Shown here: positions 10,983 through 43,614 of the stretch, piece after piece
Position numbering within the stretch: position 1 is the first letter of the stretch
Layout: every line of letters begins with the position of its first letter
Origin: an uncultured Christensenellaceae bacterium
Lineage (GTDB): Bacteria > Bacillota > Clostridia > Christensenellales > Borkfalkiaceae
Direction: 5' to 3'
Assembly: GCA_910586825.1 (NCBI GenBank)
Contig: CAJUJF010000010.1
Location: 5,589-69,588 of the forward strand
DNA length: 64,000 nt
Notes under the pieces: generated by a model
Databases searched by the model: none
The model's input: only the letters and a program-made list of their open reading frames with translations
What the model was told of the DNA's origin: nothing
Made by a program: the position numbers and the translations under genes

Positions 10983-11000
10983 TCCCCCCAAAAGCGGACT

Positions 11001-16585: not shown

Positions 16586-16693
16586 GCAACCCTCCATTTT
16601 TTCTTTTTGAGTGAATTTTTTATTTTACGAAACGATCTTTGCGATCAGTTTGTGCTTTTTTCCGAAAAAGGCATCCTCGCGATCTGAGACTTT

Positions 16694-16824: not shown

Positions 16825-16848
16825 GGCAATCTTACTATTTACAAGTTA

Positions 16849-16877
16849 ATCATAGCATACCCGATTTTGTTTGTCAA
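16849..16877 (-). promoter_or_regulatory. Sigma-A type promoter driving the riboswitch-like leader and Na/Pi gene
   Basis: Minus strand reads TTGACA, a 17-nt spacer, then TATGAT with a TGC extended -10 (-35 at 16872-16877, -10 at 16849-16854). Confidence 0.6.
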
Positions 16878-17052
16878 GAAAATTAAATATTTTGTTGCGT
16901 TGCAAATTTGTCTCGTCATCCCATAAATTTCTTTGAAAATTCGAATATCGCAAATTTTTATCAAACAATTATTATTTATCGATTTTTGTTTCTCTTTTCA
17001 TTTCCGCCATTTGCTCGATCAGTTCCGCCAAAGGATGGTATTCGCCGCCCCA

Positions 17053-32300: not shown

Positions 32301-35300
32301 GCGCAAAGAAGAGACTGCCCGCCGAGCTTTCCCAATTCGACGAACCCGTATCCGAACAATACTTCACGTCGGCGGTCCCGATCGCGCTCAGCCCGTTTCC
32401 GGAACTGTCTTCGCCGCCGTATACGAAGTTCAATTTCCACGCGCTGTCGATTTTAAGTCCGAGCGAACGCGCGCCGATTTTGAAGCTCTTCTGCACGTTC
32501 CCGTCGGCATCGACGGTTTCGCTGTCCGCCCACTCGTAATTGTTCTTCGCCGCCGCTTTGATTTCCAGCTTCACGCTGTACGTGCCGGCGTGGAGAACCG
32601 TACCGTCCGTTTCGACGACCCCGACCGGAGTCGAAGCGGAATCGACCGCAAGACTGCCCGACACGATCCCGACGACGTCGTCTTTCTCATCGTATTGCGT
32701 GACGATGCCGTTCGCCGTTATGAAATCGGACGGATCGTGCTTTTGATTGTCGAACGTAATATCCTGCAACAGACGGTCGGATTGCAACTTCGCGGGATTT
32801 ACGGTCACGACGGGCGCGCGGAGAAGCGTCTCCGTCGGCGAATCGCTGAAACGGTACGCGTCGGTATCGGTCGCCGAAACGTATACGACGTATTTGCCCG
32901 CGTTAAGATGCTGACCCGCCTGAGAGAGATCGATCACGTTAAGCGTTTCCGTGTCAATATAGTACAGCTTAAATTCGGTGTATACCGTCCATGCGGGAAT
33001 CGACGCGTCGTCGGAGGGCTTTTCCGAGAGCGGTCTCAGCGTATAAGTCGCGTCGCCGAATTCCGTCACGCCCGTCACTTCGGGAGTTTTGGGATTTTCG
33101 CCGTACGTCCAGACCTTGTCTGCGGACGCGTACGAAACGCGGAGATTGAGCGCGAGTTTATCGATCTGAACGGTGTACGTCAGGCTGAGCGATTCGCGTT
33201 CCGCGCCCGAACTGCCCGCGTCGGCAAACTCCACTTCGTCCTTATGCCGTTCGTCGATCGCGATCCTCACGCGGTAAATCCCCGCTTTCCGGAACGAAAG
33301 CGTGAACTTGTGCGCCGCCTTTTCTCTTTCCACTGCGTAGTCTTCCGCGGGGACTTCGTTCCCGTTCTGATGCAAGAGCGTAACGCTCATCGCGTCAAAA
33401 ATATCGTCGGGCAGATCTTTGGCAAAGGTGATCGTCTTACTGGCGTCGGAAGAAAAATTGATCGTGTCCGTGTTGAACGCGGGCAAAGGCACTTCGTACT
33501 TGCTTACGGGAATGTAAATACGGGCGTAATCGTTTTCGTCCGTCGTAAACTCTACCCAATCGGTCGCGTGAGTGTCGTCGTATATGAATTTGAACCTTAC
33601 CGACCCCACTTTCGTCGTCGCATTGTTGTAAAACGCCTTTACGTTCAACGGCGCTCCGGAACAGTCGGTGGAGGTAAAATATTCGATTTCAAAATGGGAC
33701 ATATCCTCCGTAATGAAATCGGAAAGATATGCGTTTCGCGCTTGCCCCGAACCGTATTTCAAAGATACCGTCATCTGTCCGAAATCGAACGGAGAAAGAT
33801 ACTTCTGCACCGGTCCGCTGTCGCCCGTGGCGATATCTCCGACGGTGGTGACGTTTCTGTAATTAATTTTGAATTGCGCCGTACCTTTGACCGTCGGATC
33901 GGCATTGTAAATGAGCGTAACGTTTTTGAGATAGGTATCGCCCGGCATGTGATTGAGATCCGCCGCCGTGGGCGTGAGCGTCCCTTCCAGCGAATAACCG
34001 GTTGCGAGCGGGTTCCAGGCGCCCGAATTGTCGCGCGTTTCCACTTTGCCGTTGAGAAGGTTCTGGACGGCGGGAGTCGTTACGGCTACGTTCGGTTCCA
34101 AAGCCGTGGTCTGGCTTTCGGCAACCCCGAGCGCGCGGATCCCGATCACTTTCGTCGCCTCGAACGGAATCGTAATCGAAGCGGGAACGGATGTGCCGTA
34201 CTGGACGCGGCTCACCTGTACGCCGATCGTGTTGTCCCCTTCCGTAAACGTCTGCGCGTTGCCGAGGGTGACGAATTCGCCCGAAGCCGCCGTCGCGGTC
34301 GTGTTTTGCAAATCGATCCCCGTAAAGTCGACCGTCTTGGCGGAATGCGCGTAATAGACCGAAAGCACGATCGCATTCTGCATGACGTAAGTACGGTTCA
34401 TCGAATCGATAAACGCCGAGAATTTGACGGGGTTTCCGTTTTCGTCGTTTTCGCCTTCGATCGTCTTGGTATAGCGCGCGCCGATTTTTTCATAGGAGGG
34501 GTTTACCTGAAAATCGGCGGCAAGCAACGGCGCCTGCGACACGGAAATGATTTGCGTGGTCGCAGAAACGGAAGCGTCAGCCGCCAGCGATACCGTAACG
34601 GTCACGGGGAAAGAAGAAGCGTCGCTCAGTTCGCCGCTCAACGAGACGTTGTAGAGTTCGCGGTTGGCGATCAGCTCGTACACACTGCCGTCCGTCGTGC
34701 CGTAGACCTTTAAAACGGAGCCGTCCAGCTTTAAGGACTCCGCCGTATAATCGTCGGTCACGCCCGAAAGCACGGCGGTGTTCATCGACGCGTTGCCGAT
34801 CCTGAGACCGGTATAAACGGGTTTCTCGCCCGTTGCGATGGTCACGGAAACTTCGGCTCTTACCTCGCCCGAAATCACGACGAGCGTCGCGCTCTCTTCC
34901 GTAGAGCCTTCCGCAACGATCGGCTCGTTTTTCCCGATCGCCTGCATCGTATTTCCCGCTTTCAGCGAAAGCGTGAATTCTTCGGGCATCAGCGCGATCG
35001 CCTGACCCAATCCCGCGAAGGTACCCGTAACGGATAAGTTTTGTTTAAAGTCTTCCGCAGTCGTGACGCCGGGATAGACGACCGCACCCTGCACGACGGA
35101 AGCGCTCAAACCCGTGTACGCATGTTTCGGCGAAGCGCTGTCCTGTATGATCGTTGCGGGCGACGTGCTATCGGCGCCCGCATTGGAATTTCGCGCGAAA
35201 TTCGGCGCAAGGATCCCCAACGCAAGCGCTAAACATGCAAAAACGGCACAAGCCGCGATTGCGACTTTGCGCCAAAAGGATACGTTACGGTATGTATTCA

Positions 35301-35301
35301 T
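20371..35301 (-). CDS. Giant (4,976 aa) repeat-built cell-surface protein / putative fibrillar adhesin with a C-terminal membrane anchor
   Basis: Uninterrupted 14,931-nt ORF with GGAGGGG 8 nt upstream of the ATG. N-terminal signal peptide (WRKVAIAACAVFACLALALGILA...NSNAGA). The body consists of tandem beta-rich modules with recurring MBG-like signatures (AGTY/GSY-x-V-x-[VL] ... N-[YF]-x-[WIVT] ... [TI]-[IV]-x-[KR]). Examples are DNYDVVVATGEFTVTKKQISV, NYRWATVDGPTRVVSFTIEKGEISF and NFEWADSTTDAIEFDWSV. It ends in a C-terminal TM helix (IFVIVMSSLGVVAGISAIAIGIQYLV), an HRRRKR stop-transfer and a 95-aa acidic tail. There is no LPXTG. Confidence 0.9.
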   Translation of the reverse strand: MNTYRNVSFWRKVAIAACAVFACLALALGILAPNFARNSNAGADSTSPATIIQDSASPKHAYTGLSASVVQGAVVYPGVTTAEDFKQNLSVTGTFAGLGQAIALMPEEFTLSLKAGNTMQAIGKNEPIVAEGSTEESATLVVISGEVRAEVSVTIATGEKPVYTGLRIGNASMNTAVLSGVTDDYTAESLKLDGSVLKVYGTTDGSVYELIANRELYNVSLSGELSDASSFPVTVTVSLAADASVSATTQIISVSQAPLLAADFQVNPSYEKIGARYTKTIEGENDENGNPVKFSAFIDSMNRTYVMQNAIVLSVYYAHSAKTVDFTGIDLQNTTATAASGEFVTLGNAQTFTEGDNTIGVQVSRVQYGTSVPASITIPFEATKVIGIRALGVAESQTTALEPNVAVTTPAVQNLLNGKVETRDNSGAWNPLATGYSLEGTLTPTAADLNHMPGDTYLKNVTLIYNADPTVKGTAQFKINYRNVTTVGDIATGDSGPVQKYLSPFDFGQMTVSLKYGSGQARNAYLSDFITEDMSHFEIEYFTSTDCSGAPLNVKAFYNNATTKVGSVRFKFIYDDTHATDWVEFTTDENDYARIYIPVSKYEVPLPAFNTDTINFSSDASKTITFAKDLPDDIFDAMSVTLLHQNGNEVPAEDYAVEREKAAHKFTLSFRKAGIYRVRIAIDERHKDEVEFADAGSSGAERESLSLTYTVQIDKLALNLRVSYASADKVWTYGENPKTPEVTGVTEFGDATYTLRPLSEKPSDDASIPAWTVYTEFKLYYIDTETLNVIDLSQAGQHLNAGKYVVYVSATDTDAYRFSDSPTETLLRAPVVTVNPAKLQSDRLLQDITFDNQKHDPSDFITANGIVTQYDEKDDVVGIVSGSLAVDSASTPVGVVETDGTVLHAGTYSVKLEIKAAAKNNYEWADSETVDADGNVQKSFKIGARSLGLKIDSAWKLNFVYGGEDSSGNGLSAIGTADVKYCSDTGSSNWESSAGSLFFAQIVSGYPKYYAKSEFNTTTGVPNAGATEYDPADFGTWDAGDYVVYYVTESAIEDYRDGDFNLPAAHAEFTVSKKSIAQVSFTQSGSDIYNGSAYEISVTNWNAGKDHSADGGKYILTWAVTGVQFGADGVIGTAEMPLTAEIPDGASTALPVGTAADHANGKFSFLHAGRYTVAVTLNANYRWDSYTDDDSEQVTFEYAVGQKEMSAHEVKTPPTSASDGTTFEWTLGFLFDGADHKPVPDASKYFTDDALTFAAAGQVKYYAENGTGVLTGSITAAGTYWVELLAWNAAADGGYSRALNFKLPDGGLKVQFAIMPSALDAPQRTAADLSEEYTGTPYTFGADYFNWNDYKFGENGFRLEIYIVRKTETEQAGLIFTAGASDSKGVSVGMTDVSVYTVYVYPAANFEWSAAAKAASGYQASMSVNGTERAGFAYDFEITQKEIGADGIEWGTVSFIYNGAQQLPSPAVKAESLLHKNDTAATVKFDADGIRITNGTSNATNVGSYTATAIKLSGDRAFNYSLASGIDQEVTISQRQIALPELKGGLSSAAYTGENITQQFTMNKPEMASGYTWNWSAVLSASVAGAYRFDGKNFTMDDQGSFSLDTATLTVRNAGVYTVTFTINDSNFCWANAGNTNVFESAEITVNRQEIIAPMLGEEVGGKFVTHRTMEFNSGNALTPSLRFPTSAWSSSDFEITYGSVTGAASPFVYAEMADKPSSLGCYYVRLKIKNADAALNYVWVENTADTENRGLVKEYAKYEYETGNVSIYLNYAITNKILRIEYAVGGYTFGDNGYFAAGAHTTIVLRDKLTMTDTDGVLLPEGGAYHNVKYTQTITFTDSEGRIVGIVQIGQDGAYSLVKQEGENYVAADASDYPDLVNFLPWNAGSYKFSVRLEFDQDDPMGSQLETLVKEGTFEVGRLAIEYEWSAGDASVKSEGSVWKVTYDGIRHGLIASVTNAPSKTAGGAEETVGIVLNYTAENYPLNANTYAFSAVSLSNDNFTLTGSASVGATLEIEKRAIGVAVTTGVAGHVYGNAIDTSAARWNYVAGSLQLIAGDLTDGETGNDTAQKIVTYEVRKSGVVYGGTVNVGDYELVPVLTDFGKTNYELTVTEDHFGNFEVVPRKITVSITGDESQKSHEYREEKADLSNAYSVVWTNKGAGSDADWRVPQDTPNKIFTLSLFSDAENVTDSTWLAVKEGGYSVRLTKTANANYEITVSSAAVSDGDFAELGVYTVTPAALGDVNADGQTKPYRGSEGYPWLSEDDGGGMITVAATAWNAAENPVVWKYAKGSSDTPPAASSAWGNFPAKVADAMSETYYWVKATAPNHADSAPIRVRVEITKAQLTLTVNFTGDHALYYGEKNPATTVTISDGEPLPAGIYSVTGFVGNDEAKWLAYGTINGLSGSFGFTTSMAAGNRNPVGKGYTTAVSSDGFTLDSLNYTFTYQEGALHIRKLPVTVTIKSNSDVNYMSPDYVGKDVSILQNASHVAFEIGSAADGKVSALPDAQTDIAMLRTTAFTLTGDTIAATQGVGVYPLYAVVLSGNYDFTFAVDGAEYSGTVTDGTLTEGQTIGAPAGVIGITQAQNAFTSGFDFHNEKTGESLETVRDLYAWIYGVNGVNGVADGYDAEGDHRITKPATLLGGDRADAIVYTVFYYNGSAWEQLGESSSDIDALFKALLSGGSFNAGVYKVSYILEGTADYGETPEASRYFSIGKRDLYLWTGDSYAYYGEKPDLIASVKVYGLADGDGDGTPDGFNEVLAYSLSAAGYTDAGSPVADYTVSAVAGEPNDKYGNYTVHLNASYTAESSVQENVTGTLHVLPRPIVIRIESQTSRYDYNAASGTSIADGQPGGKQKLTFTAALGSELEYGALTGTPFYGVAAPYNGVYDNAARAVVELRTNAILNASANEIRTQNVGNYPIFALYQDEAAKKNYAITVETVYTGDPDTEAAVKDYFHKGDAAWNFSDIFVSGYHSELAATATVIGAPEGGVYPAGTYTIEKADLRMSSSDLSYRKADGTYQAYADGDTDAMYYDGRSKGYTAQPADEKYSVVINAQYRIAGSGAEDWTADPVNVGRYEYRFVVDNPDFTWNPGGASNPTINIAKRPLRASVQIDGADRVRAAAYNDNSFKYKGAGADNDYTLTYTFGNYVGSEAVNLAQAVSAQRRALNASESAAFGSLSLESTYGGTYAGYVFTLSAKNAGTYTVTLSLGADMENYVFEMGADLKDGAISFTFTILPDTFNVTAKDAWVQYGTPIGNASQQADAQAAALFQGFSLTQKTLDKIAAENAAFAGSFTNAPVFTAPQYDPAKSQAGASGLYVLPGGLWAYNYDVTYNAASGDANGRLTVNRREITVIVNGYDKDDTSTYAWARKIYTGLAQTVDYRAYADKFFAPQDPNSSRKWYGAAAGDASKNYADLFELTLDFGGTSAINAGDYVMTLHVGESNYRATFKNAAGDTIFAGEHGDSNTNMPSFRIEKAQLYVYAGSVGMNGDNKTVSVDREDAASLGKFREFNITYGNTVKLDDRRDSYFTVRYYGWQHDEGNEYEFLGNRNQMQGSLQFRTELVSGKGEENYAAWNSHAGSVYKVIPYGVTFSNYAINVMNADGTWSNETTFMPAEMTVVSRLVTAETEDRNYAESIVSESGVFDRFNYKGGASGRNHAAQIVFKDFGGNELYGINNAGVYYEGGSAVKGTDIKTDGYEVVANATAIAPKIASYSYAYREGTGDAIPNQGPTRVGKYTVTVTLNSESGNYDYKVVSVSDKTGSTPKTSETLNYAVLQRELSLNWTNYGTTEDGRSYYAWDEEKDRGKKVLELPSYIAAIMEPVVIQYRPDKDRAYDLVSVADIAALADGTYHESDNGLTIRVYGTGEYYLVVRLQDGARNNYTFGTDQVTMPSVRFSATAAKFLVLTYSGWQYTPKEVVHPAPEYRLQNVGDGTSSSVQFAYASVDPSKIPDGFANYGNLLTESDPVAAFGAGTFSAFVPRNAGTYMLRAYYPGTEEISSANAYLLFVVTQATVSRPKVESSDPTFTGERLSTRFTYNFTLFDVVYDGVSQTTTDGDGRNNGLIVYQTDRGDYTVTFRLNDTRNYMLVDLDETEGIDSVRYDLANNVATFVWSVAAASDHAVTRFDASVLEALVYGQDYAAPEAEATYGGEIVIEYFADGVWSTRKPVAAGNYKVRAVSPATNNYYAGTEGTRAVGEEFDFEIRRARITVTPSATAVYGTAFDPVGGSQQYALGFAGFVAGETESVLRYADGGVTYRLVETPEKLNAGSYALTLASTKHTFYGTEYDVVTGITADNYDVVVATGEFTVTKKQISVLIGSVNAVYGDPFSLASAQITVYPEGGIVAGDEIADLRIYESLALYDAPASNGSYGAGNYMMRIAADYSNGNYEVTFPVIGAYIVSPLQINVEFTGGGGEYGGAAIAPAYNAQSMVAANGAHAGKNLAEIENIIVPSFRFVYFGTSNDGEWSFTELLATDAAPTRAGNYVAKPIGSVSGNYTLTASNGVEYVISKKVIDAANSGITVKNATYTGGELRPELNANDYEALYEVTPVTYVNVGVWDVTLTLKDFNNYRWATVDGPTRVVSFTIEKGEISFVPTADGKDVSIEGWTYGNAPNAPSTQTQLTNQDSYTYYYSKTGEANADDWTTTVPSAAGIWFVRVEVRPTENYNGATSGAAEFVIEKARLSAPSLTVVAEGESKNDTYTGALLQTVVRGYDNTRTQIVYDYTEGYAATAEGVVLRALNAGAYTVKFRISDASNYRWDEGVALDESGDAVLVWNVARKKIEKPTANTSTFIVNGGMLRYMPVGFDETTMEIAGNEISYGGTFKVTVTLKDPFNFEWADSTTDAIEFDWSVVGWDTIFVIVMSSLGVVAGISAIAIGIQYLVHRRRKRVEAAAEAAAAKEFHETIQARAETNAKEAEAPVAQPSADQAVEPNESSAEQSGEGAEPSAEDVQSEAEPASEQPKKTARKKSAKKSGGEE

Positions 35302-35528
35302 ATAGTTATCCCCTCCCGCCTGCCGACGCGCTCGTTCCGCGAAAGCAAGCGTTTAAATCACCTATGGTAAAATATGCGCGAATCGGTTCGAAAAGGACTT
35401 CGCCGCACCGTTATCCGGAAAACCGTCTTCCGAGAAAAGATAAAAAATATGCCGAACGGTCTTTTCGGGACAGCCGACGACCTTCAAGCACATTTCAATA
35501 TTTTTATATATTGAACGTTTACGCTTAT

Positions 35529-35558
35529 ATAATAACATACGTGTCGCGTTTTTGTCTA
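35529..35558 (-). promoter_or_regulatory. Candidate promoter of the giant gene
   Basis: Minus strand reads TAGACA, an 18-nt spacer, then TATTAT preceded by TGT (extended -10). This would give a ~220-nt 5' UTR. The -35 is weak. Confidence 0.3.
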
Positions 35559-35578
35559 TACTTCTTGCATAAAAAAAA

Positions 35579-35623
35579 TTGATTTTTTCAGAAAATTATT
35601 AACAGAATTTCCGAAAAAATCAA
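35579..35623. promoter_or_regulatory. AT-rich 11-bp inverted repeat, either a weak terminator of the upstream gene or an operator
   Basis: TTGATTTTTTC (35579-35589) and GAAAAAATCAA (35613-35623) are perfectly complementary, 23 nt apart. On the minus strand a T8 run follows. Confidence 0.35.
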
Positions 35624-35697
35624 ATTTATCCAACAAATTATTCGACTTCCGCCGAACGCGGCCCGAGAAGCAAGCGCACTTTTTCGACACGAAGCGA

Positions 35698-36075
35698 TCA
35701 GATGATCACGTTTTCGAGCGCTTCGTCCTCCTGCGCTTTGCGCACGGCCTGCGCGTTCGCTTTCATCGTATCCATTTTTTCGAGCAATTTTTCGCGCTCT
35801 TGCTGCAAACGCTCGTCGTGCAGTTTGCGCGGCGCAAGCGGCGCGGGCGTCTCCGGTTCGGAAACGATCTCGCCCGATTTCATGCCGTCGAGCTGTTTGA
35901 TGAGCATTTCGCGCTCCTCCTGCAATTCGCCGGTGAGACGGCGTTCTACGTTCCGCTTCATGTAAATGATAAACAGCACGTTCATGACCGTAAGCGCAGC
36001 CAAAAGAACCGCAACGATAATCGATACGGCAAGCTGTGCGGGCGTGAAACTGACTGCAAGCATATTCGTGTTCAT
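35698..36075 (-). CDS. Small (125 aa) membrane-anchored coiled-coil protein, paralogous to the N-terminus of the 849-aa protein
   Basis: The ATG at 36075 (MNTNMLAVSFTPAQ) has GGAG 7 nt upstream. It has a TM helix (LAVSIIVAVLLAALTVMNVLFIIY), then KRNVERR, then two copies of an LQ[EQ]ERE-x-L heptad-like motif. Confidence 0.65.
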   Translation of the reverse strand: MNTNMLAVSFTPAQLAVSIIVAVLLAALTVMNVLFIIYMKRNVERRLTGELQEEREMLIKQLDGMKSGEIVSEPETPAPLAPRKLHDERLQQEREKLLEKMDTMKANAQAVRKAQEDEALENVII

Positions 36076-36199
36076 AACTCTTCTCCTTTGCACTTCTTCG
36101 GTGCGGAACGGATAACGCGAAAGACGTTAGGCGTTTTTTTGCGTACGAAACAATTCCGCGACGCCGTACGGCATCCCGGAAGCGGGTTTTTTAACGCGA

Positions 36200-36427
36200 T
36201 CAGTCGAGCTTTTCGAGTTCTTCGTTCAGCTGACGGAGATTCTTGCGTTCAAGTTCGATCAGCGTCGAAAAAATCTTGAAATATTCCACGTCCGATTCGT
36301 TGGGCGACGTGTTGTTCAGATACGCTTCGAGCAACGCGGACTGGGAGCGCATGCGCTTCTTTTCAAGGGTCTCGATTTCCTTTTCGCTCTCGCTGATTTC
36401 TCTTTTCAGATCGCTTTTCTTAGACAT
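36200..36427 (-). CDS. Small (75 aa) soluble coiled-coil protein, function unknown
   Basis: Strong RBS AAAGGAGAAAGG 4 nt upstream of the ATG. The sequence is charged and heptad-rich (SESEKEIETLEKK...ELERKNLRQLNEELEKLD). Confidence 0.6.
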   Translation of the reverse strand: MSKKSDLKREISESEKEIETLEKKRMRSQSALLEAYLNNTSPNESDVEYFKIFSTLIELERKNLRQLNEELEKLD

Positions 36428-36473
36428 AACCTTTCTCCTTTCGATTTGTTTTTATTAAAACGGATCGCCGTTT

Positions 36474-36830
36474 TTAACTTAGTTTGCGGATATTTTCCAC
36501 CGCGCATGCATAATCGACGCGGACTTGTTCGAACAAAGGAACGGTTTCCGGCGTATACTCCGTCTTTCCGCGAAGCGCTTCCGTCAGTTTGCTTGCGGAC
36601 TCCTGCAAACGCGTGAGGGATAAGTTCAAGCAAATCCCCTTTAACGTGTGCGCGGCGCGGAACGCCTCCTCCATGTTCTTCTCTTCCAAAGACCGGCACA
36701 GCAGCGCATAACTGCCGTCCTCGGCGACTTTGATCAGAAAGCGCACGATGCGCTCGTCCGATCTCAAACGGCTGAACGCCTCGTCGTAATTGGCGCCCAT
36801 TGCCTCGTAACATTCGCGAACCGTCATCAT
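36474..36830 (-). CDS. Stand-alone Hpt (histidine phosphotransfer) protein
   Basis: 118 aa, four-helix-bundle sized, with the phospho-His motif AAHTLKGICLNL (H-x-x-K-G). It starts 9 nt downstream of the response-regulator gene. Confidence 0.8.
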   Translation of the reverse strand: MMTVRECYEAMGANYDEAFSRLRSDERIVRFLIKVAEDGSYALLCRSLEEKNMEEAFRAAHTLKGICLNLSLTRLQESASKLTEALRGKTEYTPETVPLFEQVRVDYACAVENIRKLS

Positions 36831-36839
36831 CTATCTCCT

Positions 36840-38903
36840 TTACCGTTCGTCTTTCCGCTGATCGGCGGAAGGCAGAACGGATTCCATTGAATCGTCATAA
36901 AAACAGTAATTGCATTTCGAGCCGCGCTTTACCGTATATTGCGCCGTGTCCGCCATGCGGAACAGCGCGTCGTAATCGCCGTCAAAGTTCTCGGTGCAGG
37001 CAACGCCCATGCTCACGCCGATTTTATAGCCCCTGTGTTCGACCGTGAGTCTGCGGAAGATACGGTCGATCTGTTCGCGAACCCGCTTCGTATACTCCAT
37101 GAAGATGATGAATTCGTCGCCGCCCATGCGCGCGCCGATATCCGTCGTACGGATATTCGCCTTGATGCGCGCGGCGACCGTTTCAAGCACCTCGTCGCCG
37201 AACAGGTGTCCGTATTGGTCGTTCGCCTGTTTGAAATTGTCGACGTCGAAGAACGCGAGCGCATATTTCTTGCCCTTGCCCTCCGCGAGCCGTTCGTTGA
37301 TGATCCGCCGCGCCGCGTTGTGGTTCAAAAGTCCCGTGCGCGAATCGCGGTTCGCCTTGTCTTCCAGATTCTCCAACGCGATCGTATCGTCGTTGACGTC
37401 CATGATCTTGCCGATCGCGCCTTCGAATTCCGGCCGCTCGGAATCTCCCCACAATACCTTTGCAACGATCTTGTTCCAGGTCTTTTCGCCGTTGATTTCG
37501 AGCTGGCATTTTTCGATCAGGATCGGATTCTCCGGCGTCGTCGCGCGCAGGTGTTCGATAAAACGGCGGAAATTGTCCGCATCGAACATCTTGCACCAGA
37601 GCGGATCTTCCGAAGGATTGACAATCTTTTCGGGCATGCCGAGCGATTCCGCGCTCCACTCCGTGAGTTTGATCATCTCGGGCACGGCGTTGTATTCGAA
37701 GGTGATCTCGCGGGAAATGTCCGAAAGATAGCGGAATTTCATGCGTTCGCGTTCGAGGAGCCGCACGCTGCGCGCCGTCATGTCCGGTCCGTCGTTTTTC
37801 AGGATCTGCTGAACGGTGTCCTGAATACTGCTGTCCGTCACCTGACCGAGCGAAAGCACGCTCAATTCGTGTTTCAGCTGATCGGCGTTCGCGCGCAGGC
37901 ACTCGATCAGAATGGGGTTAAACGTACCGCACTCGCCGTTCAGGATCATGCGAACCGCCTCGTCGGGCGAGAACGCCGCCTTATAGCAACGCTTGCTCGT
38001 GAGCGCATCGTACACGTCCGCGATCGCGACGACCTGCGCGGAAATGGGGATATCGTCCCCTTTCAACCCGTCGGGATAGCCCTTTCCGTCGTAACGCTCG
38101 TGGTGCCAACGGCATATTTCGTAACTGAACCGAATGAGCGCTTCGTTCTGACGGAACGGAATGTTGTCGAGCATCTTTGCGCCCTCGACGGTGTGCCGCT
38201 TCATGATCTCGAACTCTTCCGGCGTGAATTTGCCCGGTTTGTTCAAAATCTCGGATGGAACGGAAATCTTGCCGATGTCGTGCAAAGCGGATGCGTTTCC
38301 GATCAAACGAATGTCTTTGGTCGAGAGCGGATATTTGTCCGTCATCTTGACGAGCTGTTTGAGCAACATTTCGGTGATCGCGTGTACGTGAAGCACGTGC
38401 ATGCCGCTTTCGCCGTTGCGGAATTCCACGATATGGGAAAGAATTTCGATCATCAGCGAATTGTCTTTCTCTTTCTCGTAAATCTGCGAAGAGAGCATAT
38501 CGGACATTTCGCGCTGTTTTACGGTCAACAGATAGTTGCTCGCAACGCGGTGTTTTACAGTGCGCTCGTCGAACGGACGGCTGATGTAATCGATCGCGCC
38601 CAGATCGTACGCGCGGTCGATGTACGTGCCGCCGGCTTCGGCGGAGATCATGATGACGGGGATCGTTTTGATCCAGCCCTTCTGATTCATCATCGCAAGC
38701 ACTTCGAACCCATCCATGACCGGCATGACGATATCGAGCAGTAAAAGCGATATCTCCAATTCGTGTTCTTGTAAAACCTGCAACGCCTCCATGCCGTTTT
38801 CCGCTTCGAGGATCTCGAAATCCTCGGAAAGCATATCCGCCAGAAGCGCGCGGTTCAATTCGGAATCGTCAACAACAAGTATGATTTTTTTCTCTTTTTT
38901 CAT
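36840..38903 (-). CDS. Response regulator with REC, HD-GYP, PAS-like and GGDEF domains (potentially bifunctional in c-di-GMP turnover)
   Basis: REC (ILVVDDSELNR, LLLLDIVMPVMDG). HD-GYP (ALHDIGK, HHERYDGKGYPDGL). GGDEF (RTTDIGARMGGDEFIIF) with an RxxD I-site five residues upstream. Confidence 0.9.
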   Translation of the reverse strand: MKKEKKIILVVDDSELNRALLADMLSEDFEILEAENGMEALQVLQEHELEISLLLLDIVMPVMDGFEVLAMMNQKGWIKTIPVIMISAEAGGTYIDRAYDLGAIDYISRPFDERTVKHRVASNYLLTVKQREMSDMLSSQIYEKEKDNSLMIEILSHIVEFRNGESGMHVLHVHAITEMLLKQLVKMTDKYPLSTKDIRLIGNASALHDIGKISVPSEILNKPGKFTPEEFEIMKRHTVEGAKMLDNIPFRQNEALIRFSYEICRWHHERYDGKGYPDGLKGDDIPISAQVVAIADVYDALTSKRCYKAAFSPDEAVRMILNGECGTFNPILIECLRANADQLKHELSVLSLGQVTDSSIQDTVQQILKNDGPDMTARSVRLLERERMKFRYLSDISREITFEYNAVPEMIKLTEWSAESLGMPEKIVNPSEDPLWCKMFDADNFRRFIEHLRATTPENPILIEKCQLEINGEKTWNKIVAKVLWGDSERPEFEGAIGKIMDVNDDTIALENLEDKANRDSRTGLLNHNAARRIINERLAEGKGKKYALAFFDVDNFKQANDQYGHLFGDEVLETVAARIKANIRTTDIGARMGGDEFIIFMEYTKRVREQIDRIFRRLTVEHRGYKIGVSMGVACTENFDGDYDALFRMADTAQYTVKRGSKCNYCFYDDSMESVLPSADQRKDER

Positions 38904-38906
38904 GTC

Positions 38907-40334
38907 TTACCCTTGCTTATTGCGTTTCGCCAGTTTTTTGAAAATGACGCTGTTTTCCCTGCCGTACTCCGTCGCCTCGTTGCAGTCCTTATTGAGCTTT
39001 GCGGCGCATTCCTGCGGCGTAAGCCTGCCGGAGAGCAGATTGAATATCCCTTTGTAGAATACGTTTCTGACCGAATTGTCCAACCCCTGCCAGTTGGGAT
39101 TTCCGCGCATGAAATGGATCACGTTCGGAATATTTTTGGTAAATTGATCGATCATGAGCATATTCTGCGCTTCCTGCTGTTCGGTGACCCGTTTGCTGGC
39201 GGAAATACTGCCCGAAGAAACGTTGAGCCATTCCTCGGTCTCGTAGATGAATTTCACGAAATCCTTTGCGGCGGCAAGCTTGCGCGCGTCCTTGTTGTCG
39301 AAAATTTCGAAACCGGTCACAAACCTCGTCGCGATTCCGCCCGTCAGGCTCGGAAAATTGACGTAACCGCATTTCGCGACTTCCTCTTCTCCTTGCAGAT
39401 AAACTTCGCAACCGATATTGAAGACGTAGAACGCGATCTGCCCTTCGTGAAAGAGCCTGTCGCAATCGCTCAACGTAAAATTCTGAGGGTGCGGCATATA
39501 CCAATTCCGCTCGATCCCGCTTTGCAGCCATTCCAATCCCCGCAACGCCTCCGGCTCGTCGAAATGAAAATAGCCGTCGTCGTCGACCAGCGATACGCCG
39601 AACCCGCTGATCAGCGCCATGATGTGCGAATCGCCCTGATTGTCTTTGGCGTACATCATCGTGGGCGCGTATTTTTTATCCGTCTTCTGCGCCATGCCCG
39701 CGCCGAGCGTATCCAGCACGTATTCCCATTCGTCGATGCTCCAAGTCTGAATGATGCCCGTTTCGTCTTCCACGAATTCGTCCAATCCGTATTCGCGGAG
39801 AATCGCCTTATTGTACATGAGAATGTTCTGCCGCCCCAGATACGGCAACATATACACCTCGCCGGCGACCTCTCCCCATTCCACGTAACCGTCTTTCAGA
39901 TCGGCGCGCGCGGATTCGGAAAGCAACCCTTCGAGCGAAATCGCGTTTCCGGAATGCACGTACGTGATCATATTATAAAAATCGTCGTAGAGAACGTCCG
40001 CCGCATCTTCCGTTCCGAACATATCCGTTACGAAGCGTTCTTCTTCGCCGTCCGGAAACATATTCACGGTGATCTCGACCTTATCTTTTTTATACTGCTC
40101 CGTGAACGCCTTTGCGGCAAGCGAGAGGAAATCTCCGCTCGTCGCGATCTCCGCGTTCGAAATTGCCGACGGAGTCGACATACGGATCAGCGGCGTTTTG
40201 ACGTTGATCCGGACGGTATCGTCCCCACCGTCGTTTCCGCAACCGCCGAGCGCAAAAAGCGAGAATCCCAAAACGGCGGAAAGCGCCGTGCAAATAATTC
40301 TTTGTCTTTTCATAAGAAAACTCCTCTTATTCAC
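38907..40334 (-). CDS. Extracellular solute-binding lipoprotein (ABC SBP family 1-like), orphan
   Basis: Lipobox FSLFALGGCGNDGG. At 475 aa it has the size and character of an SBP. No permease or ATPase genes are adjacent. There are 3-nt gaps to both flanking signalling genes. Confidence 0.8.
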   Translation of the reverse strand: MNKRSFLMKRQRIICTALSAVLGFSLFALGGCGNDGGDDTVRINVKTPLIRMSTPSAISNAEIATSGDFLSLAAKAFTEQYKKDKVEITVNMFPDGEEERFVTDMFGTEDAADVLYDDFYNMITYVHSGNAISLEGLLSESARADLKDGYVEWGEVAGEVYMLPYLGRQNILMYNKAILREYGLDEFVEDETGIIQTWSIDEWEYVLDTLGAGMAQKTDKKYAPTMMYAKDNQGDSHIMALISGFGVSLVDDDGYFHFDEPEALRGLEWLQSGIERNWYMPHPQNFTLSDCDRLFHEGQIAFYVFNIGCEVYLQGEEEVAKCGYVNFPSLTGGIATRFVTGFEIFDNKDARKLAAAKDFVKFIYETEEWLNVSSGSISASKRVTEQQEAQNMLMIDQFTKNIPNVIHFMRGNPNWQGLDNSVRNVFYKGIFNLLSGRLTPQECAAKLNKDCNEATEYGRENSVIFKKLAKRNKQG

Positions 40335-40337
40335 GCG

Positions 40338-42557
40338 TTAATTCCCCGAATGTTTTTTTAAACTGATCGCTTCCATCTTTTGCAGGAATACCTTCACGTC
40401 GATCGGCTTGGTCAGGAAATCGTTCATGCCGCTCTGCATCGCGCGCACGCGGTCCTCTTCGAACGTATTCGCGGTGCATGCGAAAATCGGAACCGTCTTC
40501 GCGTCTTCGCGGTCGAGTTCGCGGATCGCTTTCGACGCCGCGCAACCGTCCATGATCGGCATGCGCATATCCATAAGAATGATGTCGTATTCGTTTAGCT
40601 CGGAATCGGAGAACATCTGAACCGCTTCGCTTCCGTTATTTGCGTGGGACGCGACAAACCCCGCTTCCCCGAGAATTTCGAGCAGGATCTCCGCGTTGAG
40701 TTCGTTGTCTTCGGCAACGAGAACGCGCGTGGGACGGTTGGTGTCCTTCTGCTTGGTAATCGGAAGCGACATATCCCGACCGTCGGAATACTGCATGTAA
40801 TCGGGCATTTCCGAAATTTCGGCGGGAATGGTTACGGTGAACTTGCTTCCCTTTTCCAGCTCGCTCTCCACCACGATCTGTCCGCCCATCGCGTCGACCA
40901 GCAGTTTGCTGATTGCCATGCCGAGTCCCGTTCCCTTGACGCTGTTGCTGTTGCGGTTGCGCTCCTGCGAGAAAGAATCGAATATCTTTTTCAGGAACTC
41001 CTTGCTCATTCCGCATCCGCTATCTTCGCAGACGAATGTCGTGGCGACCCGCTTGTCGTCGATTATTTTCTGGTGCAACGAGAGTTTGATAAACCCGCCT
41101 CTGGGCGTGAACTTCGCGGCGTTGCCGACAATGTTCATGAGCACCTGCTTGATGCGCACTTCGTCGCCGTAAACGCAGGGCGCTTTGATGTCGATATCCG
41201 TGATGAACCGCACGCCGCGCGATTCGATATTGTCGCGTTGCATCGACCAGATCGCGTCCATGACCGTTTCGAGCAGAAGCGGCTCGTGCGTGAGTTCCAC
41301 TTTCCCCGCCTGCAACTTCGACATGTCGAGCACGTCGTTTACAAGCGACAGGAGATAGTTGGCGGTGCTGTGCGATTTTGCAAGCCATTCTTTGATCTGT
41401 TCCGCCTTTTCGGGGTCGTTGATCGACTGCAACACCAAGTAGTTCAATCCGACCAGCCCGTTGAGCGGCGTCCGGATCTCATGGCTCATATTGGAAAGGA
41501 ATTCGCTCTGCGCCCGTTCCTTGGCAAGCGCTTTGACCGCGCGGTTCTGCGTGATCATGACGAACAGCAACGCAACGATCACGATCAAGAGAACGATGAC
41601 CAACTCTATGATATTGAGCGTGATCAACGAAGAACTCCATTCGTCGAACACCGCTTCGTTGACCGACATGATAAAGTACCATTCGATGCCGCTATCCTCG
41701 AACGGAGTGCAATAGGCGAATCTGCGGACGGGATCGCCGTCCTCGCGGTCGGTGCGGTAGAAACTGAACGTCTCGCTTGCGCTCATCTTTTCCGCAACCT
41801 GTTCTTTGGTAAAATCCGACTGATCGCAGTTTTCGATATACGTAAACAGATTGCGCGTCTGATTCAGATATCCGGTGCGGTAAGCGTCTACGATAAAGTT
41901 GCCCGACTTATCCACGACGGCGCTGTAACCGCGCGGAGAATTGCCTTTATGGAAAATATCGATGACCAATCCGTCCTGAATCGAACTCACTTTCGTAAAA
42001 CCGAGCAGAAAAGACATCTTCTTTCCGCTTACGACCAGATCCCCGAGATTTTCTCCGTTGACGTCGCGTAAGGCAGACACATTGATCCCGTAAACGAGAT
42101 ATTCCTCTTCCTCGTTTTCGCCGACCCAATCGTAATGGAACACCGTGTTGCTCAACACTTCTTCGTTACGTATAAAATGCGCCGAAAAATCGTACTCTTC
42201 TTTATCGAGAAAGAGAAACGTATCGGTGTACGCCGTTCCGTCTTCGCCGACCAGATACACGTAGTCGAACGAACTCTCTTCCCGCTCTTGCAGGATATAT
42301 TCCTGAATATCCTGAATATATCTATATTCCTTGCGGTGGAGTCGCTGACCCATACGATCCAAAAAATCCCAATTGTGATTGATATACGTGTTGATCGCGT
42401 TGCGGTCGTGCTTCACCATTTCGCTGATCATCTGTACGGTATTGGTATGCACCACGCCGTCCAGCAACGCGATGTAGACGACCGCAACGACAAAAACGAC
42501 GCATGCAATGATCGTCGCAACCGCGATATGTAAAACTCGTCTTTTTACTTTTTCCAT
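40338..42557 (-). CDS. Hybrid sensor histidine kinase (extracytoplasmic sensor, HisKA, HATPase_c, REC)
   Basis: TM1 (IAVATIIACVVFVVAVVYIALL), then ~270 aa outside, then TM2 (IIELVIVLLIVIVALLFVMI). H-box SHEIRTPLNG and HATPase motifs (DSGCGM, GTGLGMAI). C-terminal REC (VLVAEDNELN, IILMDMRMPIMDG). I chose the ATG at 42557 (MEKVKRR) because GGAG lies 6 nt upstream. Confidence 0.9.
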   Translation of the reverse strand: MEKVKRRVLHIAVATIIACVVFVVAVVYIALLDGVVHTNTVQMISEMVKHDRNAINTYINHNWDFLDRMGQRLHRKEYRYIQDIQEYILQEREESSFDYVYLVGEDGTAYTDTFLFLDKEEYDFSAHFIRNEEVLSNTVFHYDWVGENEEEEYLVYGINVSALRDVNGENLGDLVVSGKKMSFLLGFTKVSSIQDGLVIDIFHKGNSPRGYSAVVDKSGNFIVDAYRTGYLNQTRNLFTYIENCDQSDFTKEQVAEKMSASETFSFYRTDREDGDPVRRFAYCTPFEDSGIEWYFIMSVNEAVFDEWSSSLITLNIIELVIVLLIVIVALLFVMITQNRAVKALAKERAQSEFLSNMSHEIRTPLNGLVGLNYLVLQSINDPEKAEQIKEWLAKSHSTANYLLSLVNDVLDMSKLQAGKVELTHEPLLLETVMDAIWSMQRDNIESRGVRFITDIDIKAPCVYGDEVRIKQVLMNIVGNAAKFTPRGGFIKLSLHQKIIDDKRVATTFVCEDSGCGMSKEFLKKIFDSFSQERNRNSNSVKGTGLGMAISKLLVDAMGGQIVVESELEKGSKFTVTIPAEISEMPDYMQYSDGRDMSLPITKQKDTNRPTRVLVAEDNELNAEILLEILGEAGFVASHANNGSEAVQMFSDSELNEYDIILMDMRMPIMDGCAASKAIRELDREDAKTVPIFACTANTFEEDRVRAMQSGMNDFLTKPIDVKVFLQKMEAISLKKHSGN

Positions 42558-42575
42558 AACCGCTCCGAATAGATC

Positions 42576-42593
42576 TTGCCGCCGCGGCGGCAA
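42576..42593. promoter_or_regulatory. 18-nt perfect GC-rich palindrome in the 5' UTR of the kinase operon
   Basis: TTGCCGCCGCGGCGGCAA lies ~20 nt upstream of the kinase RBS. It could be an RNA hairpin or a protein-binding site. Confidence 0.4.
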
Positions 42594-42626
42594 CTCAACG
42601 ATATCGGGCAAAGCCCGTACATAATT

Positions 42627-42655
42627 ATTTTATCATATTTATTTACAATACGCAA
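42627..42655 (-). promoter_or_regulatory. Sigma-A type promoter of the kinase/SBP/RR/Hpt operon
   Basis: Minus strand reads TTGCGT, a 17-nt spacer, then TAAAAT preceded by TGA (extended -10). -35 at 42650-42655 and -10 at 42627-42632. Confidence 0.55.
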
Positions 42656-42726
42656 GAGTTTCGTTAAAATATCGCGACGGAAGCTTTGCTTTTTCTCGAA
42701 AAAACGTCTTTTTCCACCCTTTTTCC

Positions 42727-43614
42727 TTATTGGCGGAACAAATTGAGAAAACTCCGCAGCGAAAAATTCGTCGCCGCCGCCCGCGGAAGCGCGACCGCGA
42801 CCGAACGCGCGGGCATGGCGGGCTCCACGCGCAGTTCGACGAGCGATCCGCTTTCGAGTTCGTTCAAGGAATATTCCCGCGGAATGCAGCCGATCCCCAT
42901 TCCGCGTTCGACGAGCCGTTTCATGAACCCCCAGCTGTCGATCTCCACCGCGGGCAGAAGCTTTGCGCCGAGGCTTTCCGCATGCCTGTCGAGCGCGGCG
43001 CGCGCAACGGTGTTCTGCTCCATCAGCAAAAGCGGATACTTCTGCAAATCCCACACCGAAAGCGTGCCCGCGCGCTCCGGAAAGAACTCGCCGCCCGCAA
43101 CGAATACGTCGTGCAACAGCGCGATGGAATCGGTGATCACGATCCCCTCGTCCGGCGCGATGGGGAGATTGAGAAATCCGACGTCGCAACGGTCCGTTTT
43201 CATCAGCTCGATGATCTTGGGCGAGACGTCCGAAATCAGCTCGATCTTCACCTCGGGACAGAGACGGTTGTATTCTACGATCTTGTCGGCAAGCAAATAC
43301 TGAAAGATCGTCTCGGAAGCGCCGATGCGTAAAGTGCCCGTCGCGCACCCGCGCAGCTCTTCCAGCCGATCCTCCACGCCGCCGAGGAGTTTCAGCGCCT
43401 TTTCGACGTCGCCGAACACCAACTCCCCGCCCTGCGCGGTCAGTTCCATGCCCTTGTGCATGCGCTTGAAGAGCGGCGTCCCGAGCTGCGATTCCAACTG
43501 CTTGATCGCCTGCGACACGGCGGGCTGGGAGATATACAGTTCCTCCGCCGCCTTGGTGAGACTGCCGCACCGCGCAACGGTGTAGAACACTTTATACAAT
43601 TCGAGATTTACCAT
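42727..43614 (-). CDS. LysR-family transcriptional regulator
   Basis: HTH GSLTKAAEELYISQPAVSQAIKQLE plus a LysR substrate-binding domain. The ATG at 43614 gives 295 aa. The ORF-track extension upstream overlaps mnmE and is Arg-rich junk. Confidence 0.9.
   Translation of the reverse strand: MVNLELYKVFYTVARCGSLTKAAEELYISQPAVSQAIKQLESQLGTPLFKRMHKGMELTAQGGELVFGDVEKALKLLGGVEDRLEELRGCATGTLRIGASETIFQYLLADKIVEYNRLCPEVKIELISDVSPKIIELMKTDRCDVGFLNLPIAPDEGIVITDSIALLHDVFVAGGEFFPERAGTLSVWDLQKYPLLLMEQNTVARAALDRHAESLGAKLLPAVEIDSWGFMKRLVERGMGIGCIPREYSLNELESGSLVELRVEPAMPARSVAVALPRAAATNFSLRSFLNLFRQ

Follow-up and report, generated by a model that had tools for sequence, protein, structure and literature searches.

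Can a gut anaerobe govern its c-di-GMP through one phosphorelay and one enzyme that both makes and breaks the messenger? The question is raised by four tightly spaced genes at positions 36474-42557 on the minus strand of the window, the whole 64,000-nt stretch of DNA analysed here. They run in the order hybrid histidine kinase (HK), solute-binding lipoprotein (SBP), REC-HD-GYP-PAS-GGDEF response regulator (RR) and stand-alone Hpt, with intergenic gaps of 3, 3 and 9 nt (Table 1). The original prediction of a tight operon encoding a complete four-step His-Asp-His-Asp phosphorelay is borne out by the presence of all four phospho-accepting residues, namely H359 (SHEIRTPLNG) and D663 (IILMDMRMP) in HK, H61 (HTLKG) in Hpt and D57 (LLLLDIVMP) in RR, and the motifs quoted for the output domains, HHERYDGKGYP and RTTD-x5-GGDEF, are likewise found. 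It overlooked the SBP gene within the same range, and its description of all four modules as intact holds for HK, the HK receiver and Hpt but not for the RR receiver, where Arg (R109) takes the place of the conserved Lys. We consider it likely that these genes encode a four-step phosphorelay, assisted by SBP, which acts on a single bifunctional enzyme to set the c-di-GMP level of the cell.

Table 1. Features of the operon, its encoded domains and its neighbours, in window coordinates.
Feature	Position	Strand	Length or residues	Basis or description
LysR-type regulator gene	42727..43614	-		directly upstream of the operon, same strand
Operon leader	42558..42660	-		possible extended -10 promoter, two hairpins, RBS
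Hybrid sensor histidine kinase (HK)	40338..42557	-	739 aa	HisKA, HATPase_c, Response_reg (Pfam)
Solute-binding lipoprotein (SBP)	38907..40334	-	475 aa	SBP_bac_1, sugar-type, signal peptide
Response regulator (RR), REC-HD-GYP-PAS-GGDEF	36840..38903	-	687 aa	Pfam and alignments
RR receiver	38544..38882	-	residues 8-120	alignment to PleD
RR HD-GYP phosphodiesterase domain	37875..38456	-	residues 150-343	4mcw, 4r8z matches
RR PAS-fold domain	37398..37718	-	residues 396-502	AF2 model and Foldseek
RR GGDEF diguanylate cyclase domain	36915..37367	-	residues 513-663	PleD 1w25, 2wb4, ~4e-30
Stand-alone Hpt	36474..36830	-	118 aa	PF01627, 37.9 bits against a cut-off of 24.6
cc75, coiled-coil hairpin protein	36200..36427	-	75 aa	46 nt past the Hpt gene, own RBS

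HK starts at an ATG at 42557 preceded by a GGAG RBS, and a longer TTG ORF extends to 42611. In the leader, a candidate promoter read by eye (TTGCGT at 42655-42650, a 17-nt spacer and TGaTAAAAT, with the -10 at 42632-42627) is followed by two small GC hairpins, including an 18-nt palindrome, and then by the RBS. A consensus scan did not report this promoter because its -35 matches at just 3/6 positions, and that the leader is the operon promoter is a possibility to which we give low weight. The LysR-type gene also stands at the matching position in the syntenic relative L085; it is treated here as a neighbour of the system.

HK comprises a TM segment, an extracytoplasmic domain of ~270 aa, a second TM segment, HisKA, HATPase_c and a receiver (Pfam E-values of 2.2e-15, 3.4e-26 and 7.3e-24 for the last three). 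In an alignment to the hybrid kinase 6qrj the H, N, G1, F and G2 boxes of the core are intact and the receiver quintet is complete, with E616/D617, D663, T (FACTAN) and K (LTKPI). The family dCache_1, considered for the sensor domain, was rejected, as it reaches E=0.0074 in the window and is absent from the SBP-paired orthologues, whose sensor part gave no firm family match in a Pfam scan. The signal peptide of SBP is followed by the lipobox LGG-C, and its best solved relative is the sugar ABC-transporter binding protein 9ry2 (8.5e-21). SBP homologues lie directly downstream of an orthologous hybrid HK in 5/5 sampled contexts from several families, which amount to six loci, L083 and L084 sharing one identical protein. 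The HK cores of these contexts are 50-79% identical, whereas the Cache-type Pumilibacter HK reaches 40%. Permease genes beside the HK-SBP pair were found neither in the window operon nor in the six sampled loci; the FtsX-type ABC exporter of L083 and L084 is unrelated and lies on the opposite strand. Gene adjacency thus suggests that SBP is probably an extracellular co-sensor of HK. A metagenome scan with SBP as query returned matches from its own species only.

RR combines Response_reg (3.8e-24), HD_5 (1.2e-31) and GGDEF (2.5e-33) domains, and the catalytic residues of both output domains, predicted to be active, are all present on alignment. The HD-GYP domain is matched best by the c-di-GMP enzymes PmGH (4mcw, 1e-35) and PA4781 (4r8z, 3.3e-31), and also by the cGAMP-specific phosphodiesterase 5z7c (9.1e-24). 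Its motifs include HDIGK, and its metal ligands E165, H169, H208, D209, H237, H267, H268 and D296 correspond in order to residues of the trinuclear site that we take to be E185, H189, H221, D222, H250, H276, H277 and D305 of PmGH, whose chain positions as printed in the alignment are offset by 6 from this assumed numbering. Compared with PleD, the GGDEF domain keeps D553, D555, N561, D570, G594-G-D-E-F598 and K659, and its I-site, R585-T-T-D588, is separated by five residues from G594. The position aligned with the Arg of the C-terminal KxxGRN stretch of PleD, presumably R446, is K663 in RR (K in 36 sequences, R in 6). Across 42 sequences, down to 34% identity, the eight HD-GYP ligands, the GYP motif, the R and D of the I-site and the other GGDEF residues are invariant, with the exception of D570 (D in 35, N in 7). 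According to structural modelling, the spacer between the two domains, earlier described as PAS-like, is folded as a PAS domain: residues 396-520 were modelled by AF2 with a pLDDT of 90.3, and the top 50 Foldseek matches of this model in the PDB are all PAS/LOV (best 3mr0, E 3.8e-5, TM 0.64; the top matches, which include FixL 8js5 and 3h9w, have a TM of 0.58-0.68). A Pfam PAS match by sequence was not found for this middle segment, nor was a cofactor motif recognised in the fold, which a linker helix (503-517) joins to GGDEF. RR scores 146 bits (1.5e-42) against the NCBIfam NosR-family REC-HD-GYP model, below its 400-bit cut-off, and judged by its sequence would be functionally like the RpfG-family REC-HD-GYP regulators while being the equivalog of no named member.

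The genome (1.76 Mb) contains one GGDEF, one HD_5 and zero EAL domains, and as GGDEF and HD-GYP both reside in RR, the relay would therefore control the whole c-di-GMP pool. Since the source assembly, in 35 contigs, reaches 95% completeness, a small risk attaches to such counts of an only copy. A different reading of the same domain set is that a single catalytic domain is enzymatic in vivo while the other senses nucleotides in a regulatory role, for example GGDEF binding GTP or c-di-GMP to tune HD-GYP, in the way known of degenerate GGDEF domains in certain GGDEF-EAL proteins, or HD-GYP acting as a binding module. Many GGDEF/EAL hybrids indeed have one working domain (PMC2952852), and an archaeal GGDEF-HD-GYP protein displayed phosphodiesterase activity alone until its linker was mutated (PMC13725321). 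Moreover, relatives at four loci (L043, L046, L048 and L061) lack a GGDEF domain and retain REC-HD-GYP-PAS together with Hpt, which suggests that the HD-GYP half is the core. We nevertheless regard this reading as improbable, as a regulatory domain needs none of the catalytic residues that are invariant in both domains, and HD-GYP would be left without substrate were the only cyclase of the genome inactive.

The RR receiver is where the cassette departs from the original prediction. Relative to PleD it keeps D12, D13, D57 and S87, and the Lys position of the quintet (DD, D, T/S, K) is R109. Across 42 orthologues D57 is found in 39 and replaced by A in three, R109 is found in 37 and Lys in none; the D57-less orthologues are also without R109. 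Every other catalytic or phospho-accepting residue of the cassette is present and kept across up to 42 orthologues. Receivers in which K is changed to Arg, a common substitution, count as pseudo-receivers, although substitution at this position need not abolish phosphorylation (PMC12632262). By this definition R109 makes the RR receiver formally a pseudo-receiver, which might be phosphorylated weakly or not at all. The stronger version, in which the domain is a true pseudo-receiver that is never phosphorylated and Hpt and HK bind RR or serve another target, draws on the same Arg and on the complete absence of Lys. It is very unlikely given the conserved D12, D13, D57 and S87, the tolerance of phosphorylation to substitution of K and the loss of R109 in those few orthologues that have lost D57. 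Nor does it account for the dedicated Hpt gene beside RR in 36/45 of the closest loci (4 of the 9 exceptions are truncated by contig ends), or offer the single Hpt another free regulator, the remaining kinases adjoining regulators of their own.

H61 of Hpt lies in FRAAHTLKG and aligns with the phospho-His region of CheA P1, and AHT[LIM]KG is kept in 41/41 neighbouring Hpt orthologues. Apparent RR-Hpt fusions in L026, L046, L047 and L048 proved to be an artefact of tblastn matches that read through stops, and no fusion exists. Downstream of Hpt, at 9-188 nt, cc75 is found in 25/29 loci, the gene after it being variable; among 31 relatives it is limited to genomes that also carry RR, and it is a conserved companion of the RR-Hpt pair. 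The family comprises ~126 representative clusters among 1.84 billion proteins. Comparing a profile with PDB sequences, and scanning 27 members against Pfam, yielded coiled-coil noise alone, and assignment as a Spo0E-like phosphatase is unsupported, the SQELD-type motif being absent. Paralogues of cc75 are also found ahead of further genes for giant surface proteins.

Two conserved units make up this mosaic operon, one composed of the hybrid HK and SBP and the other of RR, Hpt and cc75. HK-SBP occurs without RR-Hpt in Lachnospiraceae and Holdemania, and in Pumilibacter, among others, the hybrid HK that accompanies RR-Hpt is of the Cache type and has two REC domains. Cultured relatives with the RR-Hpt cassette include Pumilibacter muris and P. 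intestinalis, with RR 70-72% identical. Within the genus, 13/18 species are without any GGDEF, and as the system is missing from many of these relatives it is therefore dispensable. The rarity in Firmicutes implied by the original prediction applies to the kinase, hybrid kinases making up <1% of two-component proteins in that phylum (PMC4558063), but extends neither to the RR-Hpt cassette, which is present in dozens of gut Clostridia genomes, nor to the output side, 74 HD-GYP/GGDEF hybrids having already been catalogued (PMC2952852).

Such separability, with the units apart in most genomes, might mean that they are merely juxtaposed here, HK feeding an unlinked regulator and another kinase feeding RR-Hpt. 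This is extremely unlikely: a hybrid kinase needs an Hpt, the single Hpt domain of the genome is encoded in the same operon as its single hybrid kinase, the gene gaps are 3-9 nt, and L041, L082 and L085 retain the complete arrangement, the last with identical gene order. The genome has in total approximately three kinases and six REC domains, and the other two kinases each adjoin their own regulator. With one hybrid HK and one Hpt the relay partners are nearly unambiguous, and their sequences indicate that HK most likely passes phosphate via Hpt to RR.

What reads the messenger is less apparent. An HMM search of the genome did not find PilZ, and neither a c-di-GMP riboswitch of class I or II nor an MshEN motif was found in the genome. 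A six-frame PilZ regex (RxxxR...D/NxSxxG) gave 153 matches, mostly spurious Arg-rich frames. At gathering score, tRNA was the sole Rfam match in the whole window, and a riboswitch in the giant-gene leader or past cc75 was rejected after a permissive search of 35200-36500 yielded noise only. Asp occupies the selectivity position in canonical c-di-GMP cyclases and Ser in Hypr enzymes. That RR handles another cyclic dinucleotide such as 3'3'-cGAMP, in the manner of Hypr-GGDEF cyclases and V-cGAP HD-GYPs, would agree with these receptor searches and with the 5z7c match but is scarcely probable given D570 (D or N throughout the orthologues) at the selectivity position, the better HD-GYP matches to PmGH and PA4781, and an RxxD I-site, which is a c-di-GMP site.

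Returning to c-di-GMP as the product, a bolder proposal is offered tentatively, and we hold it to be rather unlikely as a whole. Here c-di-GMP signalling would consist of one sensor relay and one make-and-break enzyme, the widespread receptors (PilZ, riboswitches, MshEN and degenerate GGDEF/EAL domains) being absent; an effector not described so far must then mediate the action of the messenger, and the R109 receiver and its private Hpt would be a pair specialised for phosphotransfer. Such a pair would be shielded from other donors, or its phosphorylated state would last long. The best candidates in the genome for a c-di-GMP effector are cc75 and the adjacent giant surface-fibre system.

For the SBP-assisted relay itself we infer a working model, in ligand, phosphotransfer, direction of regulation, both enzyme activities and downstream target alike. 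The lipoprotein SBP would bind an extracellular, probably carbohydrate-like solute and dock on the extracytoplasmic domain of HK, shifting its balance of kinase and phosphatase activity. Phosphate would pass from H359 to D663 within HK, on to H61 of Hpt and finally to D57 of RR, where the Arg-for-Lys receiver probably alters the kinetics of phosphotransfer or dephosphorylation and abolishes neither. By analogy with RpfG, phosphorylation may lift the inhibition of the adjoining HD-GYP phosphodiesterase. The PAS-GGDEF half would make c-di-GMP, capped by the RxxD product-inhibition site, and the PAS domain may bring a second, cytoplasmic input to this half. We also infer the toggle between c-di-GMP synthesis and degradation that was originally proposed. 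Downstream, the circuit possibly acts on the neighbouring giant surface-protein system.

The cassette is genuine, an unstudied variant of designs already known (RpfC/RpfG and LuxPQ-LuxU) that is assembled from parts of known types. In the DSF-sensing system of Xanthomonas campestris, RpfC/RpfG is likewise a His-Asp-His-Asp relay, which starts at a membrane hybrid kinase and ends at a REC-HD-GYP regulator, whose phosphorylation activates HD-GYP and switches on c-di-GMP hydrolysis, and whose GYP motif contacts the DxD motif on the GGDEF domains of other proteins (PMC3749722). The GGDEF domain of RR carries this motif as D553-V-D555, and the GGDEF partner is fused in cis, whereas RpfG lacks a PAS-GGDEF half. 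Further differences are that Hpt is fused in RpfC and a separate protein here, that the RpfG receiver has a normal Lys, and that the Rpf system belongs to another phylum and includes no SBP. In Vibrio AI-2 quorum sensing, LuxP-LuxQ-LuxU-LuxO pairs a binding protein with a hybrid kinase, from which a stand-alone Hpt leads to the terminal response regulator. The wiring, in which the binding protein is periplasmic or extracellular, is that of the operon described here, but LuxP is from another family of binding proteins, and the LuxO-side output is a sigma-54 activator rather than a predicted c-di-GMP enzyme. The cytoplasmic part of HK matches the NCBIfam LuxQ model (4.7e-77) with 259.7 bits against a cut-off of 1200 and is no LuxQ equivalog.

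Control of a bifunctional c-di-GMP enzyme by an extracytoplasmic solute-binding protein has a precedent in Vibrio cholerae NspS-MbaA, although there NspS makes direct contact with MbaA, a GGDEF-EAL protein of the membrane, and a phosphorelay is not involved (PMC8967002), while here the enzyme is of the HD-GYP type and is reached via a kinase and Hpt. The catalogued GGDEF/HD-GYP hybrids, often with PAS, likewise hold both domains intact in one polypeptide with both activities predicted (PMC2952852), as does the archaeal REC-PAS-PocR-GGDEF-HD-GYP protein (PMC13725321). Described hybrids mostly place GGDEF before HD-GYP, unlike the REC-HD-GYP-PAS-GGDEF order of RR, with its dedicated Hpt and Arg-type receiver. 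PleD and WspR similarly use a phospho-receiver to control a GGDEF domain with an RxxD I-site, but their receiver adjoins GGDEF and acts by dimerisation, whereas in RR it adjoins HD-GYP and a PAS domain and helix precede GGDEF.

Cause and effect are difficult to disentangle in most bacteria in which c-di-GMP has been investigated, because these encode dozens of redundant cyclases and phosphodiesterases. This 1.76-Mb gut anaerobe appears to run its whole c-di-GMP pool via one protein, one kinase and one Hpt, and the useful angle of the cassette is this one-enzyme c-di-GMP circuit. HK and SBP, for their part, constitute a widespread sensor unit in gut Firmicutes. Lost entirely in close relatives, and with its RR-Hpt cassette present in cultured ones, the system represents a naturally minimal c-di-GMP system that bears on how a fused HD-GYP/GGDEF enzyme switches direction, on the effect of an Arg-for-Lys receiver on phosphotransfer, and on what reads c-di-GMP where a known receptor is missing.

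The operon joins two units, a sensor unit of hybrid kinase (HK) plus solute-binding lipoprotein (SBP) and an output unit of regulator (RR) plus Hpt, each of which is conserved apart from the other in different genomes. The four genes occupy 36474-42557 of the minus strand with intergenic gaps of only 3, 3 and 9 nt, as anticipated by the original prediction of one tight operon. All motifs it cited for kinase, Hpt and regulator were found and these three components are borne out, but the SBP gene lying between kinase and regulator had gone unmentioned. The HK reading frame as listed opens with a TTG (42611); translation more likely begins with the ATG at 42557, which has a GGAG ribosome-binding site and agrees with the coordinate originally proposed. 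The HK leader contains a perfect 18-nt GC palindrome, TTGCCGCCGCGGCGGCAA (42576-42593, minus strand), and a smaller hairpin, GGGCTTTGCCC, both placed between a possible extended -10 promoter called by eye and the ribosome-binding site. Neither has a match in Rfam.

Coordinates of the operon and related features (L numbers are loci fetched from other genomes; unprefixed coordinates refer to the window)
Feature	Location	Strand	Details
Hybrid kinase (HK)	40338-42557	-	Pfam HisKA + HATPase_c + Response_reg
Binding protein (SBP)	38907-40334	-	475 aa; Pfam SBP_bac_1
Regulator (RR)	36840-38903	-	687 aa; Pfam Response_reg + HD_5 (HD-GYP model) + GGDEF
Hpt	36474-36830	-	118 aa; Pfam Hpt
cc75	36200-36427	-	75-aa coiled-coil hairpin protein, downstream of Hpt gene
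cc75 copies in other loci	L004:10932-11162; L093:7476-7697; L089:6476-6697
HK-SBP two-gene units	L083:3810-7335; L086:3813-7419; L087:3881-7335; L088:3788-7398
RR variant REC-HD-GYP	L046:7986-9509; L048:1510-3057; L043:356-1864; L061:7983-9524		about 500 aa, no Pfam GGDEF match
RR variant GGDEF-REC-HD-GYP	L052:7554-9569		permuted
RR variant (REC-HD-GYP)x2	L062:7998-10139		tandem
Large protein after cassette	window		4976 aa
Large protein after cassette	L085		4796 aa
Large protein after cassette	L011		at least 2366 aa
Large protein after cassette	L008/L009		1632 aa, one PMP repeat
Large protein after cassette	L089		1335 aa

Close RR relatives occur in at least 45 species-level genomes, mostly of Christensenellales-type gut Clostridia with some Lachnospiraceae and Oscillospiraceae bins, and include the cultured Pumilibacter muris and P. 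intestinalis. The Hpt gene lies directly 3' of RR in 36 of 45 loci, and four of the nine exceptions are contig ends. In about 30 loci a hybrid kinase sits just 5' of RR, yet it differs from that of the window, having about 850-1120 aa, two receivers and no accompanying binding protein; in P. muris it carries a Cache sensor and is 40% identical to the window HK core. SBP homologues (36-66% identity) instead directly follow an orthologous 705-751-aa hybrid HK in every context sampled (a Lachnospiraceae MAG, Holdemania, two further assemblies and one close relative), with kinase cores 50-79% identical to that of the window. No permease genes adjoin the pair in these contexts, and outside close relatives no regulator or Hpt is nearby. 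Conserved in Lachnospiraceae, Holdemania and other Firmicutes, the unit pairs a hybrid HK that has an unassigned ectodomain with an SBP_bac_1 lipoprotein directly after it. It seems to represent a sensor family, not described before, that depends on a binding protein and has its Hpt and regulator partners at other loci. The entire window arrangement, with the LysR gene upstream and the giant surface-protein gene downstream, recurs in L085, to some extent in L041, and also in L082, from the same species as the window.

Other loci show further layouts. In the same-genus species G018 (L090, G018:C5:68000-87999, at ~7400-17500 on the minus strand) the RR-Hpt pair lies between two hybrid kinases; the one downstream of Hpt has two receivers, and the upstream one is followed by a binding-protein gene of weak similarity (22%). 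The locus may represent an evolutionary step between the two sensor layouts. Each of the RR relatives with variant architecture (see table) has a neighbouring Hpt. An RR orthologue in a MAG contig (L005:7689-9758) is interrupted by one in-frame stop codon, the result of pseudogenisation or of faulty assembly. The Holdemania locus also carries a CBASS-like defence pair, probably unrelated to HK-SBP: a DncV-like CD-NTase (nucleotidyltransferase) that has an AGS_C domain, plus a NUDIX-type gene (L087:1-1461), situated ~2.4 kb before the HK-SBP unit with a GntR-type gene in between.

Both enzymatic domains of RR look catalytically competent from residue conservation across 42 full-length orthologues from public genomes (34-72% identity), the catalytic sets having been retained when checked against domain alignments. 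The HD-GYP domain aligns with two active enzymes of solved structure, PmGH (4mcw, 1e-35) and PA4781 (4r8z, 3.3e-31), and its eight PmGH-type metal ligands (E165, H169, H208, D209, H237, H267, H268 and D296) and HHERxDGxGYP motif are invariant. GGDEF matches PleD at about 4e-30, with D553, D555, N561, I-site R585/D588, GGDE 594-597 and K659 invariant and F598 present in 41 orthologues. Position 570, the selectivity position, is Asp in 35 and Asn in seven; the Asp points to c-di-GMP being favoured over cGAMP as product. The segment between the two domains has no Pfam match. The full-length AlphaFold model (pLDDT 79.9) places a beta-beta-alpha-alpha-alpha-beta-beta-beta unit at 400-502, then a helix leading into GGDEF; prediction is poor for residues 352-393. 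A separate model of residues 396-520, built with 42 sequences, has pLDDT 90.3, and its top PDB matches by Foldseek are all PAS/LOV domains (TM 0.58-0.68). The predicted fold thus bears out the PAS-like segment originally proposed, giving the architecture REC-HD-GYP-PAS-GGDEF.

Of the four phosphotransfer modules originally read as intact, three stand: the HK core and fused receiver are canonical, and the Hpt phospho-His lies within AHT[LIM]KG in all 41 Hpt orthologues neighbouring RR. The terminal receiver retains D12, D13, D57 and S87, but alignment with PleD places R109 at the conserved-Lys position; 37 of the 42 orthologues have Arg there and none has Lys. A recent survey classes receivers with such substitutions as pseudo-receivers, among which Lys to Arg is common, and phosphorylation is not necessarily abolished by them (PMC12632262). 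Partner assignment is nearly unambiguous from genome context. The 1.76 Mb draft (35 contigs, 95% complete) encodes six receiver domains and about three histidine kinases, of which HK alone is hybrid and the other two adjoin their own regulators. With one Hpt, one GGDEF, one HD-GYP and no EAL domain in the genome, its single hybrid kinase, Hpt and c-di-GMP turnover enzyme all fall in one operon.

We propose a model where SBP, whose best-matching relatives of solved structure bind sugars, takes up an extracellular, probably carbohydrate-like solute and modulates HK via the HK ectodomain, which has not been assigned to a family. Phosphate would then pass from H359 to D663 of HK, to H61 of Hpt and on to D57 of RR. 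Regulation could have either sign; LuxQ-type kinases can act as phosphatases once their binding protein is loaded. By analogy with RpfG (PMC3749722), the unphosphorylated receiver may inhibit HD-GYP and phosphorylation relieve this inhibition. The PAS-GGDEF half would supply c-di-GMP under I-site feedback, possibly with a second, cytoplasmic input via PAS. The RpfG GYP motif contacts a DxD motif on separate GGDEF proteins (PMC3749722), whereas in RR the DxD (D553-V-D555) and GYP motifs share one chain, which makes direct cross-talk between the two domains plausible.

A 75-aa coiled-coil protein, cc75, is tied to the RR-Hpt pair at least as strongly as to the giant gene. It lies 9-188 nt behind Hpt in 25 of 29 loci regardless of the next gene, and occurs in only three genomes among 31 relatives, all three also carrying RR. 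The family (about 126 representative clusters) has conserved LEKKRxRSQSALLEA and EYFxxFxxLIELER stretches and no Pfam or PDB relative. In the same-genus species G009 a paralogue lies away from any relay, 0.4 kb before two ORFs, one of 504 aa and one giant (at least 2149 aa); another, in G010, lies behind a 1335-aa protein that itself follows Hpt. Large, poorly annotated proteins come after the cassette in several loci. cc75 may connect the relay with the giant surface protein, a lead from gene neighbourhood rather than a finding.

The wiring of binding protein, hybrid kinase, free Hpt and regulator equals that of LuxPQ-LuxU-LuxO, and the output type that of RpfC/RpfG. NspS-MbaA likewise has a bifunctional c-di-GMP enzyme under the control of a binding protein (PMC8967002), the enzyme activities here being predicted. 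In a count of 1034 HD-GYP proteins, 74 were HD-GYP/GGDEF hybrids and almost all of these had an intact GGDEF (PMC2952852); one archaeal hybrid has been experimentally tested (PMC13725321). The rarity in Firmicutes originally emphasised is right in general, hybrid kinases making up <1% of their two-component proteins (PMC4558063), although gut Clostridia commonly carry this cassette. While the parts are of known kinds, distinctive traits are the domain order REC-HD-GYP-PAS-GGDEF, the Arg-type receiver with a private Hpt and the predicted binding-protein sensor.

A further distinctive trait is that RR is the sole c-di-GMP enzyme of a draft genome without a known receptor among the four classes searched, an absence of evidence for that limited set. 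HMM search of the six-frame translated genome gave no PilZ, covariance searches no class I or II c-di-GMP riboswitch, and motif searches no MshEN signature or PilB-type ATPase Walker motif. Rfam matched only one tRNA in the window, and the I-site of RR is the only recognisable c-di-GMP binding site. Many transcription-factor receptors of c-di-GMP are not recognisable from sequence. GGDEF domains are absent from 13 of 18 other species of the genus; in four the orthologous regulator (about 683-712 aa) is the only GGDEF protein, and one has no more than a weak match. By this distribution the system is accessory and patchy. Where present, the cassette is essentially the entire c-di-GMP machinery; within this one genus (G001-G018), c-di-GMP signalling is either there or missing as a single cassette.
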